Part shown: positions 7,658 through 15,594 of the stretch, piece after piece
Position numbering within the stretch: position 1 is the first letter of the stretch
How the letters are laid out: every line of letters starts with the position of its first letter
From: Thermoleophilia bacterium
GTDB taxonomy: Bacteria; Actinomycetota; Thermoleophilia; RBG-16-64-13
NCBI GenBank assembly: GCA_027493445.1
Contig: JAOSKU010000001.1
Coordinates: 1,803,936 to 1,867,935 of the forward strand
Reading direction: 5' to 3'
Length of the DNA stretch: 64,000 nt
Notes under the pieces: generated by a model
What the model was told of the DNA's origin: nothing
What the model saw: only the letters and a program-made list of their open reading frames with translations
Database searches by the model: none
Made by a program: the position numbers and the translations under genes

Positions 7658-9889
7658 ATGGGGAGAATGGGGATCTGCGGCATGGCGGGCCGCGCGCTTC
7701 TGATTCTGGCCCTGGTCCTGCTTTGCATCGTCCCGGCGGCGGCGGCCGCCCCGGCGGCAGCGGGAATAGGCGGCGAACCCGACCTGAGCGGCAGGAGCGA
7801 CAACCGGCCTCACCCGCTTGGCGATCAGCAGGCGGAGCTGAAGGCGAAGGCGCTCGAGGCCAAGCTCAGCGGCAAAGCGTACGGCAAGACGCACGAAGTG
7901 GCCCGCGGCCAGTTCGTCGAGCTTACCCGGGAGGGCGAGGACTCGATCTGGACCGTACTGGGCGAGTTCAGCGACTTCCCGCACAACAACGTCGCCCAGC
8001 CCGACCGCGCCTTCGACAACTCCACCATCTGGACGCCGGACTTCAGCCGCGACTACTACCTGGACCTGCTGTTCGCAGAAGGGTCCGGCGCCAATTCGAT
8101 GCGCAACTTCTACATCGAACAGTCGTCGAATCGCTACACGGTCAACGGCGACGTGACCGACTGGATTCCCGTTCCGGGGACGGCCGCGTCCTACGACGAC
8201 TCACCGGACGCCAATGTCTGGAACTTCCTGCAAGACAGCATCGACGGCTGGTACGCGTCTCGACTGGCGGCGGGCATGAGCGCCGCGGACATCGACGCCT
8301 ACCTGAACCGGTTCGATACCTGGGACCGTTACGACTGGGACGGCGACGGCAACTTCAACGAGTCCGACGGCTACATCGACCACTTCCAGTCCGTCCACGC
8401 TGGTGAGGGCGAGGAGGCCGGCGGCGGGACCTTGGGCGCGGCGGCCATCTGGAGTCACCGCTGGTACGCCAACTTCGGAGGCATCGGCAGCGTGGGACCA
8501 TCCCCCGACTACCTACTTGGCGGCCTGCGGATCGGCGGCAGCAGTTACTGGATCGGCGACTACACCATCGAGCCGGAGAACGGCGGGGTGGGCGTGTTCG
8601 CCCACGAGTTCGGCCACGATCTCGGTCTGCCCGACCTGTACGCCACGCAGGGAGGGGAGAACTCCACCGCCTTCTGGACCTTGATGTCTTCCGGCTCCTG
8701 GCTCAGCGACGGCACCCAGGACCTCGGCTCGAAGCCCGGGCACATGGGCGCCTGGGAGAAGTTCCAGCTCGGCTGGCTGAACTATGAGGTCGCCCGCGCC
8801 GGCCAGAGGTCCCAGCACAAGCTCGGCCCGGCCGAGACAACCACGAAGCAGGCGCAGGGACTGTTCGTGATCCTGCCGATGAAGGAAGTCACCACGAACA
8901 TCGGCAGTCCCTACAGCGGCGACCACTTCTACTACAGCGGCTCCGGAGACAACCTCGACAACTTCATGTACAAGCAGTTCGATCTGGCCGCCGGATCGTC
9001 CCTGACCGCAATGGTCGACTACCAGATCGAGAACGATTGGGACTACGCCTACGTGGTGGTGTCCACCGACGGCGGCGCCACTTGGACAAGCGTGCAGACT
9101 ACCGAATCGACCAGCACCAACCCCAACGGTCAGAACCTCGGCTACGGCATCACCGGCAGCTCCGGGGGTTGGGTCGCCCTGGCCGCCGACCTCTCGGCCT
9201 ACACGGGTGACGTGCTCCTGGGCTTCCGCTACTGGACCGACGCCGCGGTGGTGGAGCGCGGGCTCATGATCGACGACATACTGATCACCGGGTACGCGCC
9301 CGATGGCGCCGAAGCCGACGCGGGCTGGACCTTCGCGGGCTTCCGGGTTTCAACCGGCACCGAGACCGGCCTGTTCAGCAACTACTACGTGGCTGAGTAC
9401 CGCCAGTACCGGGGCTACGACGCGGGTTTGCGGAACGCCTACAACTTCGGCTTCCTGAACGATCAGGCGCGGCAGAACTGGGTCGAGCGGTTCCCCTACC
9501 AGGACGGCCTGCTCATCAGCTACTGGGATACCTCCCAGGCCGACAACAACACTCCGCAACATCCCGGCCGGGGCCTGCTCCTACCCATCGACGCCCACCC
9601 GGAGGTCATGATGCGCCCCGACGCCGGCGTGTGGCGCAACCGGGTGCAGGCCTTCGATTCCACCTTCGCACTGGATCCGACCGACGCGATCACGCTGCAC
9701 TGGTGGGGCGAGCCGTCGTACTTCGCGAGCCAGAAGGCGGTCCCGGTCTTCGATGACCGAACGCAGTACTACCGGCCTGCGAATCCGTGGGGAGGCGTCA
9801 TCAACCCCAACACCGGAACACAGGTCACAATCAGAAGCATCAGCACCCTCGGCAACTTCATGCAGGTCGAGGTTCGTCCGGCGAAGTAA
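7658..9889 (+). CDS. Secreted zinc metalloprotease, peptidase family M6 (immune inhibitor A / InhA-like)
   Basis: Signal peptide (LLILALVLLCIVPAAAAA). M6 zinc site VFAHEFGHDLGLPDLY (HEXXH...D.Y). 743 aa. RBS GGAGAGAGGG before the ATG. Confidence 0.85.
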   Translation: MGRMGICGMAGRALLILALVLLCIVPAAAAAPAAAGIGGEPDLSGRSDNRPHPLGDQQAELKAKALEAKLSGKAYGKTHEVARGQFVELTREGEDSIWTVLGEFSDFPHNNVAQPDRAFDNSTIWTPDFSRDYYLDLLFAEGSGANSMRNFYIEQSSNRYTVNGDVTDWIPVPGTAASYDDSPDANVWNFLQDSIDGWYASRLAAGMSAADIDAYLNRFDTWDRYDWDGDGNFNESDGYIDHFQSVHAGEGEEAGGGTLGAAAIWSHRWYANFGGIGSVGPSPDYLLGGLRIGGSSYWIGDYTIEPENGGVGVFAHEFGHDLGLPDLYATQGGENSTAFWTLMSSGSWLSDGTQDLGSKPGHMGAWEKFQLGWLNYEVARAGQRSQHKLGPAETTTKQAQGLFVILPMKEVTTNIGSPYSGDHFYYSGSGDNLDNFMYKQFDLAAGSSLTAMVDYQIENDWDYAYVVVSTDGGATWTSVQTTESTSTNPNGQNLGYGITGSSGGWVALAADLSAYTGDVLLGFRYWTDAAVVERGLMIDDILITGYAPDGAEADAGWTFAGFRVSTGTETGLFSNYYVAEYRQYRGYDAGLRNAYNFGFLNDQARQNWVERFPYQDGLLISYWDTSQADNNTPQHPGRGLLLPIDAHPEVMMRPDAGVWRNRVQAFDSTFALDPTDAITLHWWGEPSYFASQKAVPVFDDRTQYYRPANPWGGVINPNTGTQVTIRSISTLGNFMQVEVRPAK

Positions 9890-10083: not shown

Positions 10084-10440
10084 TCAGACCCCCGGCAGCA
10101 ACTTCTTCAGCGACGTCCCCACCGAACCTCTGTCTTGTTCACTCAGCGCCCCGATAGACCTGAGGATGAAGCGGTGGTCGAGGGTGAAGAGCTTCATGCG
10201 CACCACCGAAGCAGCCTCGAGACCGGCCGACGGGAGATCGTCTATGGCCACATCGAGCGGCCACCGGGAGTTGCGGGCACTCGTGATCATGGCGAGGACG
10301 CTGTGCCCCACGAGCCCCCCCTGCTCCGCCGTGCTCGACAGGACGAGAGCGGGCCTGCGGCGAGCGCGCGGGCTGTCCGTGAAGGGGAAAGGCACGACCA
10401 CCACGGACCACGGCTCATAGTCCACGATAGGCGTCCTCAT
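10084..10440 (-). CDS. mazF: MazF/PemK-family endoribonuclease toxin
   Basis: 118 aa. Family motifs RRRPALVLS and DVAIDDLPSAGL..ASVVR..KLFTLD. Overlaps the upstream antitoxin. Confidence 0.8.
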   Translation of the reverse strand: MRTPIVDYEPWSVVVVPFPFTDSPRARRRPALVLSSTAEQGGLVGHSVLAMITSARNSRWPLDVAIDDLPSAGLEAASVVRMKLFTLDHRFILRSIGALSEQDRGSVGTSLKKLLPGV

Positions 10441-10633
10441 CCTCGTGGGAGAGCCACTCCTCGAGGGTGCCCTCGAGAGACCGGGCGAACTCCAAATCGA
10501 GCGGGTCGGCCTTGCGCATCGTCACCTGGTCGCCTGTCACGAGAAAAGCAACGGAGTCGCCCTGCCGCAGCCCCAGCGCGGCCCGCACGGACGCCGGGAT
10601 GGTAGCCTGGTACTTCTTGGTCAGTCGACTCAT
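10415..10633 (-). CDS. mazE: MazE/AbrB/SpoVT-family antitoxin
   Basis: Swapped-hairpin motif MSRLTKKYQATIPASVRAALGLRQGDSVAF. Internal ATG at 10633 with an upstream GGAAG. Confidence 0.75.
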   Translation of the reverse strand: MSRLTKKYQATIPASVRAALGLRQGDSVAFLVTGDQVTMRKADPLDLEFARSLEGTLEEWLSHEDEDAYRGL

Positions 10634-10684
10634 GGCTGTTACTTCCTTGGAGCGCACGTCGATCACCTGGCCCTGGCCATCCAT

Positions 10685-10725
10685 TGGTAATACAGTAATA
10701 CTATGCTACTGCATTACTCGCTATC
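10685..10725 (-). promoter_or_regulatory. AT-rich promoter/operator candidate of mazEF with inverted repeat AGTAAT(N13)ATTACT
   Basis: An unusually AT-rich patch (ggtaatacagtaatactatgctactgcattactcgctatc) 60-90 nt upstream of the mazE start. It contains a 6-bp inverted repeat and TAGTAT/TATTAC -10-like hexamers on the gene strand. Confidence 0.35.
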
Positions 10726-10983
10726 AGACAAAGCCGCCCGGCATCGTGCTCGCTCAGTGTTCCTAGTGCGCTCTTGGAAGATAGACCACCCCGGGTGAAA
10801 GCCGGATGCATCCTTGGTTGGATTCTGGCCAGATCGCACGTATGGCAATTCCAGGATCTGGGCGCCGGGTATCACCCGCGACTGCTACCTGGATTTGCCT
10901 TTCGCCGCAGGCCCCGGAACTCCGCAGGCGGAGCCGGGTATCACCATTGGGGTGGAAATGGCGACGGCGCCCCCCGCCGGCCC

Positions 10984-11610
10984 CTACGCCGGCGGCCAGG
11001 GCTGGGACGGTGGCTGCGGCGGTGGCTGCGGCTGCCCCTGCTGCGACTGGGGCGGCCACCCCTCTGGATGCCCTTGTGGCTGCGGGCCCGGCCACGGCTG
11101 CCCGGGCGGAACCTCCCTGGGCCACGGCTGCGGCTGGTGCGGCTGACCCGGCCACTGTCCCGGCCGCGGCTGCAACCCGGGCGGCGCGACACGCGCCGCC
11201 CGGCGCGCCAGGACTCCTGCAATCAGCGCGAGCAAGGGGGGTCCAGCAAGGGGCCCGGCCACCGGCGCCAGGAACTGGACCCCATCGGGCTGAAGGGCCA
11301 CCAGCGCCCCGGCGGCCCCGGCGGCGGCCAGCAGCCCGAGGACACCCGGCAGCACCAGGAACCACAGGGCTGTGCGCCGGCTCTTCGGTCCCACGAACAC
11401 CCCGATCAAAGCCGGAAGCGCCACCAAAGCCAAGATGAGCGCGCCGCTCCCGAAGATCCCCAACGCCAGGAACACGGCGCCGGGCCCCCGGCCTCCGTCC
11501 CAGGTCTCTGGATCGCGCAGGACCTCGCGGACTAGAAACACCAGGTTGGCCGCTACCAGACCGGCCGCAACGGCGGCCACGAACGCCAGGAGTCGTCCGG
11601 TGATTCTCAT
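10984..11610 (-). CDS. Hypothetical 4-TM membrane protein with Pro/Gln/Trp-rich low-complexity C-terminal tail
   Basis: RBS GGAGG 7 nt before the ATG. Four hydrophobic helices, then the tail PRPGQWPGQPHQPQPWP...PQPPPQPPSQPWPPA, encoded by a periodic GGCTGCGG-type nucleotide repeat at 10990-11160. The start overlaps the upstream gene's stop (co-transcribed). Confidence 0.55.
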   Translation of the reverse strand: MRITGRLLAFVAAVAAGLVAANLVFLVREVLRDPETWDGGRGPGAVFLALGIFGSGALILALVALPALIGVFVGPKSRRTALWFLVLPGVLGLLAAAGAAGALVALQPDGVQFLAPVAGPLAGPPLLALIAGVLARRAARVAPPGLQPRPGQWPGQPHQPQPWPREVPPGQPWPGPQPQGHPEGWPPQSQQGQPQPPPQPPSQPWPPA

Positions 11611-12652
11611 GGCCGGCCTCCTACCGGCGGCCCAAGAGACCCTGGAGCCGGCTCCTCAGCGGGCCGGTCCCACAGCGGTCGGCCGACGCGAAGCAGCGCA
11701 TCCAGAGGTCGCAGGAAGCCCTCCCGCAACGCGGACCGCACCGTGTCGTGGCGGGCGACCCAGCGAGCCAGACCGGGACCGTTGCGCTCGTACCACCCGA
11801 TGAAAGCCCGGCCGGCCGGCCGCGGGCGCAGCACCCGTTCCCGGAAGGTCCGCAGCACGGCTATCTCCTGGGCCACCGGGGTGCCGTAGGCTATGGTAGC
11901 CACGAAGCAGTCGATCTCCTCGCCGGCCGTCTCCCCGCCCGATCCGCTGACCTTCCAGGGCGGAGCCTCCGGGTCGAAGGAGTTGGTCGACTCGATGATC
12001 ACCCGCTCGTTCCCGGAGGTGCCGCCTTTGAGATACGGGTTCTCCTGGGCCTCCGCGGCGCTCAAAGCCTTCCCTAGCCAGCCGTCGACCACCCAGGCGT
12101 CGCCGCCCCAGGTGGTCGGATCGTTGGGATCGGCCCCGTCGGCCATGCCCCAGACGGCGATCTCGTGCCCGGGAGCGGTCAGGATGCGGACGTTGCCCGC
12201 CACGCCGGCGTGTTTGAGGATGTAGTAGGCGGTGTTGGCCTGCTCGCTGCACTGGCTCAGGCGGTTTTCCCAGGCCCATTCGGCTGTGTGCCGGTAGTCG
12301 AAGTCGTTGCGGTCGCGCCACTCCCCGAAAGCCTTGTCCGCGGCGCTCTCTCCGAAGACGCTCAGCCAGTTCCCGGGGATGCTCATGCGCTCGAAGCTGT
12401 TCACGTTGACCATGCGCCGGTCGAGCACCCCGGTGAGCCAGGCGGCGATCTCGTCCCGGGGAGTTCCGGCTTGGTCCAGTGTGCGGACAACTCGCACGGC
12501 TTCGTCGAGGGTGTCGGGGTCGGTGGCAGGAAGGTCGGCAGCCCAGGCATTCACGGGGAGCACAATGAGCATCAGGCAGACACTCAGGAGTACAGCGGCC
12601 CGGAGATACCCGCCGCGCCTATCTCGCCCGCGGTCGTGCGACACGACTAGCC
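11607..12652 (-). CDS. Secreted hypothetical protein with conserved C-terminal CFxATIAYG...LRTFRERVL...WYERNGPGLARWVARH domain
   Basis: Likely GTG start at 12652 after AAAGGGGGG. Signal peptide ...LLSVCLMLIVLPVNAWA/ADLP. The C-terminal 90 aa match a recurring motif arrangement (Cys-Phe-x-Ala-Thr-x-Ala-Tyr-Gly ... LRxFRExxL ... YxxxxPxxAxxxARH) that I recognise from secreted proteins but cannot name. Confidence 0.6.
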
Positions 12653-12970
12653 CCCCTTTCGCGACGCTGCCTGTGAGTCCGGCCGGCTGAGCACAGCGCG
12701 ACTCGAGTCCAAGCATGGAGTCCAAGCATACCCGACTTCACTGGACTCAGGGAAATCATCGGCATCACCGGGCCGAAGCTGAAGGCAACGATATGACCGT
12801 CTCTCGGGCAGCGCGAACGCCACTCGTCCGCAGCCCGTCGCTCAGATTCTCGGCTCGAGCCTGACGATAGGCGTCGACGGCGGCCATAAGGATTCAGGGC
12901 TCGCCTGCCGAATAGAGTAATTACGGCTCAAGGTGCCGGAACCTCGCGTCGTCGGATCTGAGTGTTTCGT

Positions 12971-13000
12971 TTGACAGATGAAGTTCGTCTGCCCTAGTAT
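12971..13000 (+). promoter_or_regulatory. Sigma-70-like promoter candidate (TTGACA-18nt-TAGTAT) for wbaP-like gene
   Basis: TTGACA at 12971-12976 and TAGTAT at 12995-13000. RBS GGGAGAG at 13021 and GTG at 13029. Confidence 0.35.
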
Positions 13001-13028
13001 CGATACCGCGAACTGACCCCGGGAGAGC

Positions 13029-14503
13029 GTGAACACCTTCACCTACTCCGAGCCACTCACCGGCACGGCCCAGAACCAGGGCCGGTTCCGGCCACGCCGC
13101 ATGCTCGCCGCCCTGGATGCCGCCGCCGCCGGGACGGCCCTGCTGGCGGCCGTCATGGGACTCTCCTTGCGGGGAGTGACCGACCCAGCGGCGCAGCTCT
13201 CCCACATGACCACGCTCGGGCTCACGTACGTGACCCTCGCCCTTCTCCTCTTCCACAACGGACAGTACTCGGTAGGCCGGCGCCTGTCGCGCCTGGACGA
13301 CACGCTCATCCTGCTCCGCAGCCTGGCGCTCGCGTATCTGGTGATCGAGGGGGCGTCCTTCGCCACCAAGGGCTTCTTCACGGGCTTCACCGGTCACTCC
13401 CGGCTGATCGTTTTCGGCGACCTCTTGCTGGCTCTCATCCTCATGGGGGCCGCCCGCTGGGCCCTGCGCGCCTATCAGGTGAGGCTCTACGTGAGCGGCG
13501 CGTCGCTGAGCCGGGTCATCATGGCCGGCTCCGGCCGGGCCGCGGCCGACTTCGCCCGCTTCCTCGAGCGCCGTCCGTGGTTGGGCGTGCGTTGCGCCGG
13601 CGGCCTCAGCGTGGCGGGCGAAGGGGGCCGGGCGCCTGCCGCCCGGGCGGTCCCCTGGTCCCGCTCATCGGGAACCTGGCCGAAGCTCGTACTGTCCTGG
13701 CGGCCTACGGTGCGAGCGAGGTGATCGTGGCCCTCGACCCCCACGAGCACCATCACCTGCCACGTATCGCCAGCGAGCTTTCGGGGGCTGGCGTACCCTT
13801 CCGAGTGGTCCCCTCCCTCTTCGAATACGGCTTTAAGTCGGCCACCCTGGCCGGCTTCCAGGAGATGCCCATGGTCGACCTGGGGGTGGACCCCATGGAC
13901 CGAGTGCAGCGCACCCTGAAACGGGCCCTCGACGTGGCCACCGCCGCTCTGGCTCTGTCCCTGACCGCCCCGGCGCTGCTGGCGGTGGCCGCCGCCGTCA
14001 AGCTTACCTCCCCCGGGCCGGTCTTCTTCCGCCAGGAGCGGGTGGGCCACAGAGGGCGCCATTTCCAGATGCTCAAGTTTCGCACCATGGTGCAGGACGC
14101 CGAGACCAGACTCGCGGAGCTGCAGACCCGCAACGAGGCCGAAGGGGCGCTCTTCAAGATCAGGGCCGATCCCCGGCTCACCCGGGTGGGCGCCTTCCTG
14201 CGCGCCTGGAGTCTGGACGAGTTCCCGCAGTTCTGGAACGTACTCCGGGGCGACATGAGCGTGGTCGGGCCCCGGCCGCCCCTGCCCCGAGAGGTGGAGA
14301 CCTACAAGACCCAGCACCACTGCCGGCTCAAGGCCACCCCCGGTATCACCGGCCTCTGGCAGGTCTCGGGCCGCAGCGACCTCAGCTTCGACGAGATGGT
14401 CAAGCTTGACCGCTACTACATCGAGAACTGGTCGGTGGGACTCGACCTGCGGATCCTCCTCAAGACGGCCTATGTGGTGCTGGCCCGCAAGGGCGCGTAT
14501 TAG
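13029..14503 (+). CDS. Polyprenyl-phosphate hexose-1-phosphate transferase (WbaP/CpsE-like bacterial sugar transferase), apparent frameshift near 13645-13665
   Basis: The N-terminal TM region and CoA-binding-like region are in ORF 13029-13724. The C-terminal Bac_transf domain (KFRTM...SLDEFPQFWNVLRGDMSVVGPRPPLP) is in ORF 13577-14503. The frames switch in a GC run. Confidence 0.75.
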
Positions 14504-14516
14504 ATACTATGCGCCC

Positions 14517-14945
14517 ATGAACCCCCTCCTTCACAGCGGGCTTGTCAAGATCGCGCGCGCGTACCGCGTGGATCTCATCTACGCCTTCGGCAGCCGGGCG
14601 GAGGAGGTCGCGTCCCTCCTATCCGGACTCCCGACTCACCCGGAGCATCCCCACTCGGACGCCGACATCGGCGTTCAGCCGGAGCGGGAACACCGCCTCA
14701 CCGCACGCGAGCGCGTCCGCCTCACGCTGGACTTGGAAAGAGAGCTGGGGATCGGGCCCGTGGACCTGGTGATCCTCCCTGAAGCAAACGCGTTCCTGGC
14801 GGCGGAGGTGGTAAGGGGCGAACTGCTCCACGCGCGGGACCTCGACGAAGAGGCCGAGACCCAGCTCTACTACCTGCGCCGGGCCGGCGATCTAGCCCCC
14901 TTCTTCCGCGAGCAATGGCTCGACACCGTAGGGAGCGAGCTGTGA
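14517..14945 (+). CDS. mnt: Minimal nucleotidyltransferase (MNT), antitoxin partner of HepT
   Basis: Pol-beta superfamily motif DLIYAFGSRA...DADIGV. Internal ATG at 14517. Confidence 0.75.
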   Translation: MNPLLHSGLVKIARAYRVDLIYAFGSRAEEVASLLSGLPTHPEHPHSDADIGVQPEREHRLTARERVRLTLDLERELGIGPVDLVILPEANAFLAAEVVRGELLHARDLDEEAETQLYYLRRAGDLAPFFREQWLDTVGSEL

Positions 14946-15400
14946 CCCCCTCCCAGATGCGGGCTGCAACGATTCTCGAGAAAAGCGGGCAGGTGCGTAC
15001 GATGCTGCAGGGCATCACAGACCTACCCTTGGCGAGCCTGCAGGACTTCGTGTCCGACCCGCGCAACCCCGCGGCGGCGGAGTCCTACTTGAGGCGGGCA
15101 CTCGAAGCCCTTCTCGATCTCGGCCGCCACATGTTGGCCAAGAGCTTCGGCCGCGGCCCGGCGGAGTATAAGGAAGTCGCCGCGGCCCTGGCCCGCGCCG
15201 GGGTGCTCGACGAGGCCCAAGGTGCGCTGCTGATGGAGCTCGCCGGCTATCGGAACCGTCTGGTCCACTTCTACGACGAGATCTCCGACCGGGAGCTGTA
15301 CGAGATCTGCTCGGACCAGCTCGGAGACGTCCGCTCCCTCCTTGAGGCCCTGCTGGACTGGGTGCGCCGGCACCCGGAGAGGGTCGACGGCGCCTTGTAG
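14942..15400 (+). CDS. hepT: HepT-like (DUF86) HEPN RNase toxin
   Basis: Rx4HxY motif in GYRNRLVHFYDEI. GTG at 14942 overlaps the MNT stop (GTGA). Confidence 0.75.
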   Translation: MTPSQMRAATILEKSGQVRTMLQGITDLPLASLQDFVSDPRNPAAAESYLRRALEALLDLGRHMLAKSFGRGPAEYKEVAAALARAGVLDEAQGALLMELAGYRNRLVHFYDEISDRELYEICSDQLGDVRSLLEALLDWVRRHPERVDGAL

Positions 15401-15594
15401 AGCCCCCGGGCGTGGCCCTCAGAAGTCCAGCGGCGCCACGGGCCGGGAGGCCGCGAGCTCCGAAGCGCAGGCGCCGCCAACTTCCCGAAGGGTCCGCTTC
15501 CCGGCGGACGCCGGGCGGTTTGGTGGAAGAAGGTGCGGCTCGCGCTGTGCGGCGCGGCGGCGCCGAAGGCGGACTTCACCTGCCGGCGGCCCCG

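Follow-up and report, generated by a model that had tools for sequence, protein, structure and literature searches.

Secreted papain-clan enzymes that are held or regulated by membrane partners are already known, and the kind of system described here is therefore not in itself surprising. LapG is controlled by docking onto a tryptophan-bearing loop of the membrane protein LapD (PMC4359373; PMC3032545), and in TgpA of Pseudomonas aeruginosa transmembrane (TM) helices are joined to an extracytoplasmic transglutaminase-like domain (PMC3507681). The subject here is a pair of overlapping minus-strand genes, geneA and geneB, in a stretch of 64,000 nucleotides from a Thermoleophilia metagenome-assembled genome (MAG; assembly GCA_027493445.1, contig JAOSKU010000001.1, positions 1,803,936 to 1,867,935), referred to below as the window. 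NCBI names both products 'hypothetical protein' (MCZ7663060.1 for geneA and MCZ7663059.1 for geneB). The geneA product is predicted to be an exported enzyme with a transglutaminase-like domain and a C-terminal CFI box, geneB encodes a protein with four hydrophobic helices, and together they are a self-contained two-gene module of an enzyme and its membrane partner, in which the partner may hold the enzyme at the membrane surface.

The CFI box is among the more abundant protein modules without known function, and no context other than the geneA-geneB cassette was found here to give a CFI-box protein an obligate, translationally coupled partner. A natural fusion of the two proteins appears to make the box dispensable, and the question of what the box does is directly testable with two small genes. 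The analysis also defines a family of secreted Cys-His-Asp enzymes that is unannotated and whose members databases call 'hypothetical protein'.

Conservation of the pair and its natural fusion

A geneB homologue lies directly after every CFI-bearing geneA homologue with readable downstream DNA, in nine of nine lineages and mostly with a 4-nt overlap, which agrees with the expectation of the original prediction that the membrane gene would be conserved beside such proteins. The lineages are the window with contigs L001 and L002; L003, L004 and L014 (Gaiellales MAG); L005; L006; L007-L009; L015; the contig of P0011/P0024; L139 with L140; and L141. Their flanking genes are unrelated, and the identity of the partner proteins falls to 24-26% in low-GC organisms. 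In the window the stop of geneA and the start of geneB overlap, as had been noted, and share an ATGA, and an identical 4-nt overlap is present in L003, L005, L006, L007 and L141; such an overlap implies translational coupling.

The C-terminal block of geneA had been described as a recurrent but poorly characterised module of secreted proteins, and the profile search suggested for it confirmed this. The block scores 65.9 bits on NCBIfam NF041770 (CFI_box_CTERM), for which the cut-off is 40, and the match covers profile positions 1-64 of 69 (E 2.1e-18); there is no Pfam model for it, and literature searches for CFI-box terms found no paper. A profile of the geneA family retrieves 19,323 cluster representatives (50% identity) at E<=1e-3, among which the lower-ranking matches listed cover the CFI part only. 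The block agrees with the family both in its C-terminal position and in its Cys-Phe-[Ile/Val]-Ala-Thr opening, the segment CFVATIAYG occupying residues 246-254 of 345, and a longer custom profile extends to about residue 323 and leaves about 22 residues beyond it. Twelve diverse CFI boxes share invariant C, F, A, L, F, R, L, G, Y and P residues. The geneA box is modelled as three helices with a predicted local distance difference test (pLDDT) score of 64-79, carries a net charge of +7 and is not followed by a TM helix.

A wider sample of CFI boxes was obtained by scanning metagenome contigs with the back-translated pattern C-F-[IV]-A-T-x-A-Y-G, which gave 120 loci (L019-L138), 117 of them confirmed by profile. 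The box lies at most 68 residues from the C-terminus in 116 of 118 complete proteins, and the tails beyond it are bimodal, about 50 stopping within 17 residues of the box and 62 of the 118 running into a single TM helix. The tail beyond this helix is net positive in 59 of the 62 cases, which places the box on the outer face adjoining the membrane. The mean net charge of the box is +2.4, compared with -4.1 for the preceding passenger region scaled to equal length, and the ten passengers sampled are of kinds typical of the cell surface (InlB B-repeats, Big_5, DUF11, NHL, RCC1 and beta-helix/NosD). Within this family geneA belongs to the roughly half that lack a TM helix after the box, and it represents the only CFI family seen here with a dedicated membrane-protein neighbour. 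As a separate observation, the CFI-box protein P0015 (L012:985-2552) has no signal peptide, carries a zinc-ribbon-like CxxC...CxxC arrangement and is followed, with a 4-nt overlap, by a thioredoxin/AhpC-like gene; here the invariant CFI cysteine may be used in the cytoplasm or in a redox role.

The original prediction had compared the pair with sortase-type systems, which would make the CFI box a sorting signal at the C-terminus and geneB the sortase-, exosortase- or rhombosortase-like machine that processes or anchors its carriers. The resemblance is real in that a conserved C-terminal module with an invariant Cys at its start recurs on many secreted proteins, about half of the boxes are followed by a TM helix and a basic tail, and geneB stands beside every CFI-bearing member of the geneA enzyme family. 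The wider sample, in which co-occurrence was judged by gene adjacency at the loci, nevertheless makes this explanation highly improbable. A geneB profile matched at none of the 117 other CFI-box loci, from which the enzyme domain was likewise absent; a small downstream gene with at least three TM helices was found at none of the 103 loci with room for one (by a predictor checked against members of the geneB family); and no neighbour family recurred in more than five loci. The CFI-box proteins P0015 and P0019 are also without a geneB partner. A general sorting or processing system for CFI boxes built on geneB is thus rejected, as is a general adjacency of CFI-box genes to genes for small polytopic membrane proteins, and geneB belongs to the enzyme family rather than to the CFI box as such. 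In addition, no processing enzyme came to light; geneB, which lacks any invariant residue of catalytic type, is also found fused to an enzyme that has no CFI box; and the box itself, a folded domain of helices about 65-80 residues long that lies ahead of the TM helix, is unlike a short tripartite signal of motif, TM segment and basic tail.

The fusion occurs in P0012 (contig L010) and in a frameshifted copy on L011, where the four helices are joined ahead of the enzyme through a fifth hydrophobic segment that is homologous to the signal peptide. Instead of the CFI box these fused proteins carry a beta-rich domain that is unrelated to it. Enzyme homologues that lack the CFI box in Planctomycetota (L016 and L018) and in L142 have no geneB. 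The enzyme family is therefore found in three states: with a CFI box and a separate four-TM gene (nine lineages), with fused four-TM helices and no CFI box (two contigs), and with neither (L016/L018 and L142). Such a pattern, in what is a small sample, is as expected if the CFI box is an adaptor that becomes dispensable once the enzyme is covalently tethered.

The putative exported enzyme and the membrane protein

The geneA product begins with a basic n-region and a hydrophobic stretch (residues 10-38), followed by a predicted cleavage site between VNAWA and AD, and its homologues have equivalent N-terminal hydrophobic segments that end in an AxA-like site. On this pattern and its conservation the protein is predicted to be exported by a Sec-type signal peptide, and a signal peptide had also been proposed originally. 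A lipoprotein signal was considered and rejected because the Cys of the signal peptide sits mid-helix, outside any lipobox, and a Tat signal was rejected because the twin-arginine is not kept in homologues.

The original prediction had missed the N-terminal Cys-His-Asp transglutaminase-like domain of geneA, and it is this domain that the membrane protein tracks, the fusion included. Residues C132, H160 and D187 do not vary among 14 close and 30 diverse homologues, and neither do N82, W125, E134 and W189; in one further homologue, P0031, Ser replaces the catalytic Cys. The family motifs G-x-C-x-E-h-A, G-H-x and D-G-W follow one another in the order Cys, His, Asp, as in Transglut_core (PF01841). 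An AlphaFold (AF2) model built from the family alignment has a core pLDDT mostly of 80-97, and a Foldseek search of this model against the PDB placed LapG first (4u65_E, E 5.9e-3, probability 1.0; also 4fgo), with further matches to the TgpA periplasmic domain, OspI, PNGase, menin and RavJ, so that all of the best matches are transglutaminase-like or papain-clan folds. By sequence, geneA falls outside PF01841 as defined by its gathering score, a Pfam scan giving no match to this family even at E<=1; 7 of the 14 and 12 of the 30 relatives give sub-threshold PF01841 matches, the best with E 9.6e-6. The sole returns of profile searches against PDB sequences, designed helical repeats that match the N-terminal helices of geneA, were set aside as spurious. 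The domain is probably a divergent, unannotated family of the transglutaminase-like superfamily.

The combination of Cys132, His160 and Asp187 with this probable fold suggests a thiol enzyme that acts outside the cytoplasmic membrane. The predicted chemistry would most likely be that of a protease or amidase, and less likely that of a cross-linking transglutaminase. An exhaustive profile search places about 120 cluster representatives (50% identity) in the enzyme family, whose inspected members mostly start with an N-terminal hydrophobic, signal-like segment and whose C-terminal modules vary between the CFI box, Cys-rich repeats, MORN_2 repeats and Ig-like domains (relatives include P0041-P0060). 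None of Pfam, PADLOC and PHROGs has a family that matches geneA, and its sole NCBIfam match is the CFI box.

The geneB product is a small polytopic membrane protein, as had been proposed, with four hydrophobic helices. Basic residues are found at its N-terminus (MRITGR), after helix 2 (KSRR) and after helix 4 (RRAARV), from which the positive-inside rule would make both termini cytoplasmic and turn loops 1 and 3 outward; the fused protein P0012 likewise points to a tail inside and an enzyme outside, and the predicted topology rests on these two lines of evidence. Among nine partner sequences with identities down to 24%, the invariant positions besides the start Met are W37, G39 and G40 (within P-E-x-W-x-G-G of loop 1), A67, A81, L85 and P88. 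None of the nine has an invariant Cys, His, Ser, Asp, Glu, Arg or Lys, and an enzyme of the sortase, exosortase, rhombosortase or rhomboid type is therefore unlikely. Of the earlier suggestion that geneB anchors or processes its neighbour, the anchoring part thus remains plausible and the processing part does not.

The Pro/Gln/Trp-rich tail of geneB is of low complexity, as had been noted, P, Q, G and W making up 83% of it (27 P, 15 Q, 8 G and 5 W). It is lineage-specific rather than conserved, one relative having a similar PQW tail and others having tails that are short and Pro-rich or basic, and it is predicted to be cytoplasmic. The periodic DNA repeat GGCTGCGG said to encode the tail proved weak, with four copies at 11012-11133 and a tandem array of only 2.8 copies of a 12-nt unit. 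The geneB family was found in none of Pfam, NCBIfam (a 12-bit chance match only), PADLOC or PHROGs. Word-indexed protein searches returned at least two and at least five relatives, all from known cassettes, a family size that is likely undercounted since hydrophobic low-complexity words probably saturate the candidate list.

The similarities to the Lap system raise the possibility that the pair is an inside-out regulator, in which geneB would sequester or inhibit the enzyme until a cytoplasmic cue sensed by the tail frees geneA to cut a surface protein. As in LapG and LapD, an exported Cys-His-Asp enzyme is genetically coupled to a membrane protein with a conserved Trp loop: LapG is the best structural match of the geneA domain, LapD grips LapG by its loop, and the only conserved polar feature of geneB is the W-x-G-G loop predicted to face outward. 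A GGDEF-domain gene, moreover, lies about 3 kb from the cassette in the near-identical contig L001. The differences make this an unlikely account of the pair. The four-TM geneB protein has no HAMP, GGDEF or EAL domain, nor any other sensory or nucleotide-binding domain, and its tail is conserved in neither length nor sequence. The GGDEF gene occurs only near the window's version of the cassette and is missing from the other loci, as are all other neighbours, and no LapD-like receptor or LapA-type giant adhesin was found among the neighbours in eight loci. The geneA protein has no sequence match to LapG or to its Pfam family (BTLCP) and is thus outside the LapG family; it carries a CFI box in addition, and it comes from a monoderm actinobacterium. 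The hold of the LapD Trp loop on LapG is the nearest functional analogy, but the pair is not a member of the Lap system, from which it differs in sequence, in the architecture of the partner and in gene context.

The appearance of TgpA among the structural matches, with its TM helices and periplasmic transglutaminase-like domain, suggests another role for geneB, that of a substrate-handling subunit that presents the enzyme with, for example, a molecule linked to a lipid or embedded in the membrane. The envelope polysaccharide genes that adjoin the module in the window would suit such a role, but this context is not conserved elsewhere. The TM part of the geneA-geneB system differs from that of TgpA in being a separate gene, fused in one lineage only, and is unrelated to the TgpA TM domains as far as this is testable. 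No binding site or channel is apparent in the four short helices, which have no conserved polar residues within the membrane, and a fold search with the model of the fused homologue returned only generic four-helix membrane bundles, none of them significant (E>0.3). Presentation of a substrate by geneB is accordingly regarded as very unlikely.

Proposed docking at the membrane surface

The linkage, the fusion and the two protein families can be brought together in one proposal, namely that a dedicated tetraspan protein, itself not an enzyme, docks a secreted thiol enzyme on the outer side of the membrane, the docking being inferred and the proposal as a whole standing at about an even chance of being correct. 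The geneA protein would be exported through its Sec-type signal peptide and would act as a thiol enzyme outside the cytoplasmic membrane. The geneB protein would be the dock or tether that keeps it at the membrane surface, and might also gate its activity. The proposed part of the CFI box is that of an adaptor that binds geneB, the membrane surface or both; in geneA the box lacks the TM anchor that directly follows it in about half of CFI-box proteins. The Pro/Gln/Trp tail, on the cytoplasmic side, would be a rapidly evolving addition that the core function does not need.

Several results weigh against this proposal. The structural similarity to LapG is weak, with a template modelling score (TM-score) of 0.45 on the target at the E-value of 5.9e-3, and no solved transglutaminase-like protein was reached when profiles of 14 and of 30 homologues were searched against PDB sequences. 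The link between fusion and loss of the CFI box comes from one lineage and two contigs; an AxA-like site persists behind the fifth helix of the fused protein, which may still be cleaved there; and the model of the fused protein has a predicted template modelling score (pTM) of 0.49, at which the arrangement of domains is unreliable. About half of CFI-box proteins, finally, have neither a TM helix of their own nor a neighbouring membrane gene, from which it follows that the CFI box in general needs no partner like geneB.

A broader form of the docking proposal, in which the CFI box would be a general module for non-covalent surface retention that binds the membrane or a membrane protein, with geneB as the first identified dedicated CFI-box receptor, is tentative and on balance rather doubtful. 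If geneB were such a receptor, the pair would represent a new way of holding secreted enzymes at the monoderm, and probably also the archaeal, surface, and the three-state pattern would be the evolutionary footprint of the mode of retention.

Gene calls, coordinates and genomic surroundings

The longest open reading frame (ORF) of geneA spans 11607..12725. Its likeliest start is the GTG at 12644, which lies 6 nt downstream of a ribosome-binding site and is the sole start codon behind aaagggggg, the triplets just upstream, CTA at 12650-12652 and GTC at 12647-12649, not being start codons. The resulting product of 345 residues, in place of the 348 given originally, is the same as the public gene call P0001 (100% identity and coverage). 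Codon-position GC is compatible with coding in both genes, and the antisense frame of geneB is similar on the same measure; the reality of geneB is therefore judged from its ribosome-binding site, the ATGA overlap and the conservation of its protein in nine lineages. A spurious high-GC ORF is ruled out on these grounds, the conservation extending to 24% identity in low-GC organisms. No Rfam match was found across 10700-13200, and hence no upstream riboswitch, and a promoter and terminator scan gave nothing useful on the minus strand. The coordinates of the features are collected in Table 1.

Table 1. Features of the geneA-geneB cassette, in positions of the window
Feature	Position	Strand	Description	Basis
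geneA	11607..12644	-	345 aa, GTG start; signal peptide, transglutaminase-like Cys-His-Asp domain (predicted) and CFI-box-CTERM	
geneA ribosome-binding site	12651..12659	-	aaagggggg	Read from sequence
geneA signal peptide	12540..12644	-	Residues 1-35, predicted cleavage between VNAWA and AD	Sequence pattern and homologues
geneA transglutaminase-like (papain-clan) Cys-His-Asp domain	11940..12527	-	Residues ~40-235, probable fold	AF2, Foldseek and weak PF01841
geneA Cys132 codon	12249..12251	-	TGC, motif GQCSEhA, proposed nucleophile	Invariance in homologues
geneA His160 codon	12165..12167	-	Motif PGHE	Invariance in homologues
geneA Asp187 codon	12084..12086	-	Motif VVDGW	Invariance in homologues
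geneA CFI-box-CTERM	11718..11909	-	Residues 246-309, from invariant Cys246 of CFVATIAYG	NCBIfam NF041770
ATGA overlap	11607..11610	-	geneA stop and geneB start	Read from sequence
geneB ribosome-binding site	11617-11622	-	AGGAGG, 6 nt upstream of the geneB ATG	
geneB	10984..11610	-	208 aa, four-helix membrane protein, partner of geneA	
geneB loop 1 motif	11485..11511	-	P-E-T-W-D-G-G-R-G, residues 34-42, predicted outward	Alignment of nine partners
geneB low-complexity tail	10987..11184	-	Pro/Gln/Gly/Trp, 66 residues, predicted cytoplasmic	Composition; follows RRAARV

The pair had been placed between polysaccharide genes and a wbaP-like gene, and these are present in the window: the WbaP-like gene stands on one side of the cassette and, on the other, glycosyltransferase and acetyltransferase genes lie beyond a MazEF pair and an M6 protease. 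This gene context is not kept in related loci, however, and the unrelated flanks in the nine lineages indicate that the polysaccharide setting in the window is incidental. The MazE/PemK toxin-antitoxin pair (10084-10684, minus strand) is directly downstream of geneB, and beyond it is a gene for a 743-aa secreted M6/InhA-like metalloprotease (7658-9889, plus strand). Contig L001, to which the window is about 98% identical, has PIN-domain toxin-antitoxin genes and the GGDEF gene on the other side of the cassette. The cassette thus sits in a variable stretch that is rich in toxin-antitoxin genes.

These surroundings bear on the possibility that the two genes are a toxin-immunity pair, with geneA as a secreted antibacterial thiol hydrolase or deamidase and geneB as the membrane protein that confers immunity. 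The gene order, in which a small membrane gene specific to the family follows and overlaps that of the enzyme, would be in keeping with such a pair, the module occurs in variable contexts among toxin-antitoxin genes, and papain-like folds such as that of OspI serve effectors. Against this, the supposed immunity protein and toxin are naturally fused in one polypeptide, which runs counter to the usual logic of such pairs, and many homologues of the enzyme domain have no such partner. No orphan copies of geneB were found, the profile searches returning only partners in known cassettes, and there was no secretion-system, Rhs, LXG or WXG marker, with PADLOC and PHROGs both empty. A toxin-immunity function is for these reasons considered improbable, and docking at the membrane surface is retained as the preferred reading.

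Some further differences were noted between the window and L001. The WbaP-like sugar transferase gene (13029-14503, plus strand) is split in the window into two overlapping ORFs in different frames (13029..13724 and 13577..14503), whereas its counterpart in L001 is intact and encodes 491 aa with CoA_binding_3 and Bac_transf domains; the split is due either to a frameshift, in which case the gene is a pseudogene, or to an assembly error in the window. About 600 bases of the window (~14942-15541) are absent from L001, and they cover a DUF86/HepT-like ORF (14915..15400) that follows a nucleotidyltransferase ORF (14406..14945), so that an MNT-HEPN toxin-antitoxin pair appears complete in the window and truncated in L001. 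Lastly, geneA homologues are present on high-GC contigs in a 'Bacteroidetes' MAG (L017, 65% identical to the actinobacterial geneA) and a 'Deltaproteobacteria' MAG (L015, 52%), and such identities in MAGs assigned to distant phyla suggest either binning contamination or recent transfer.

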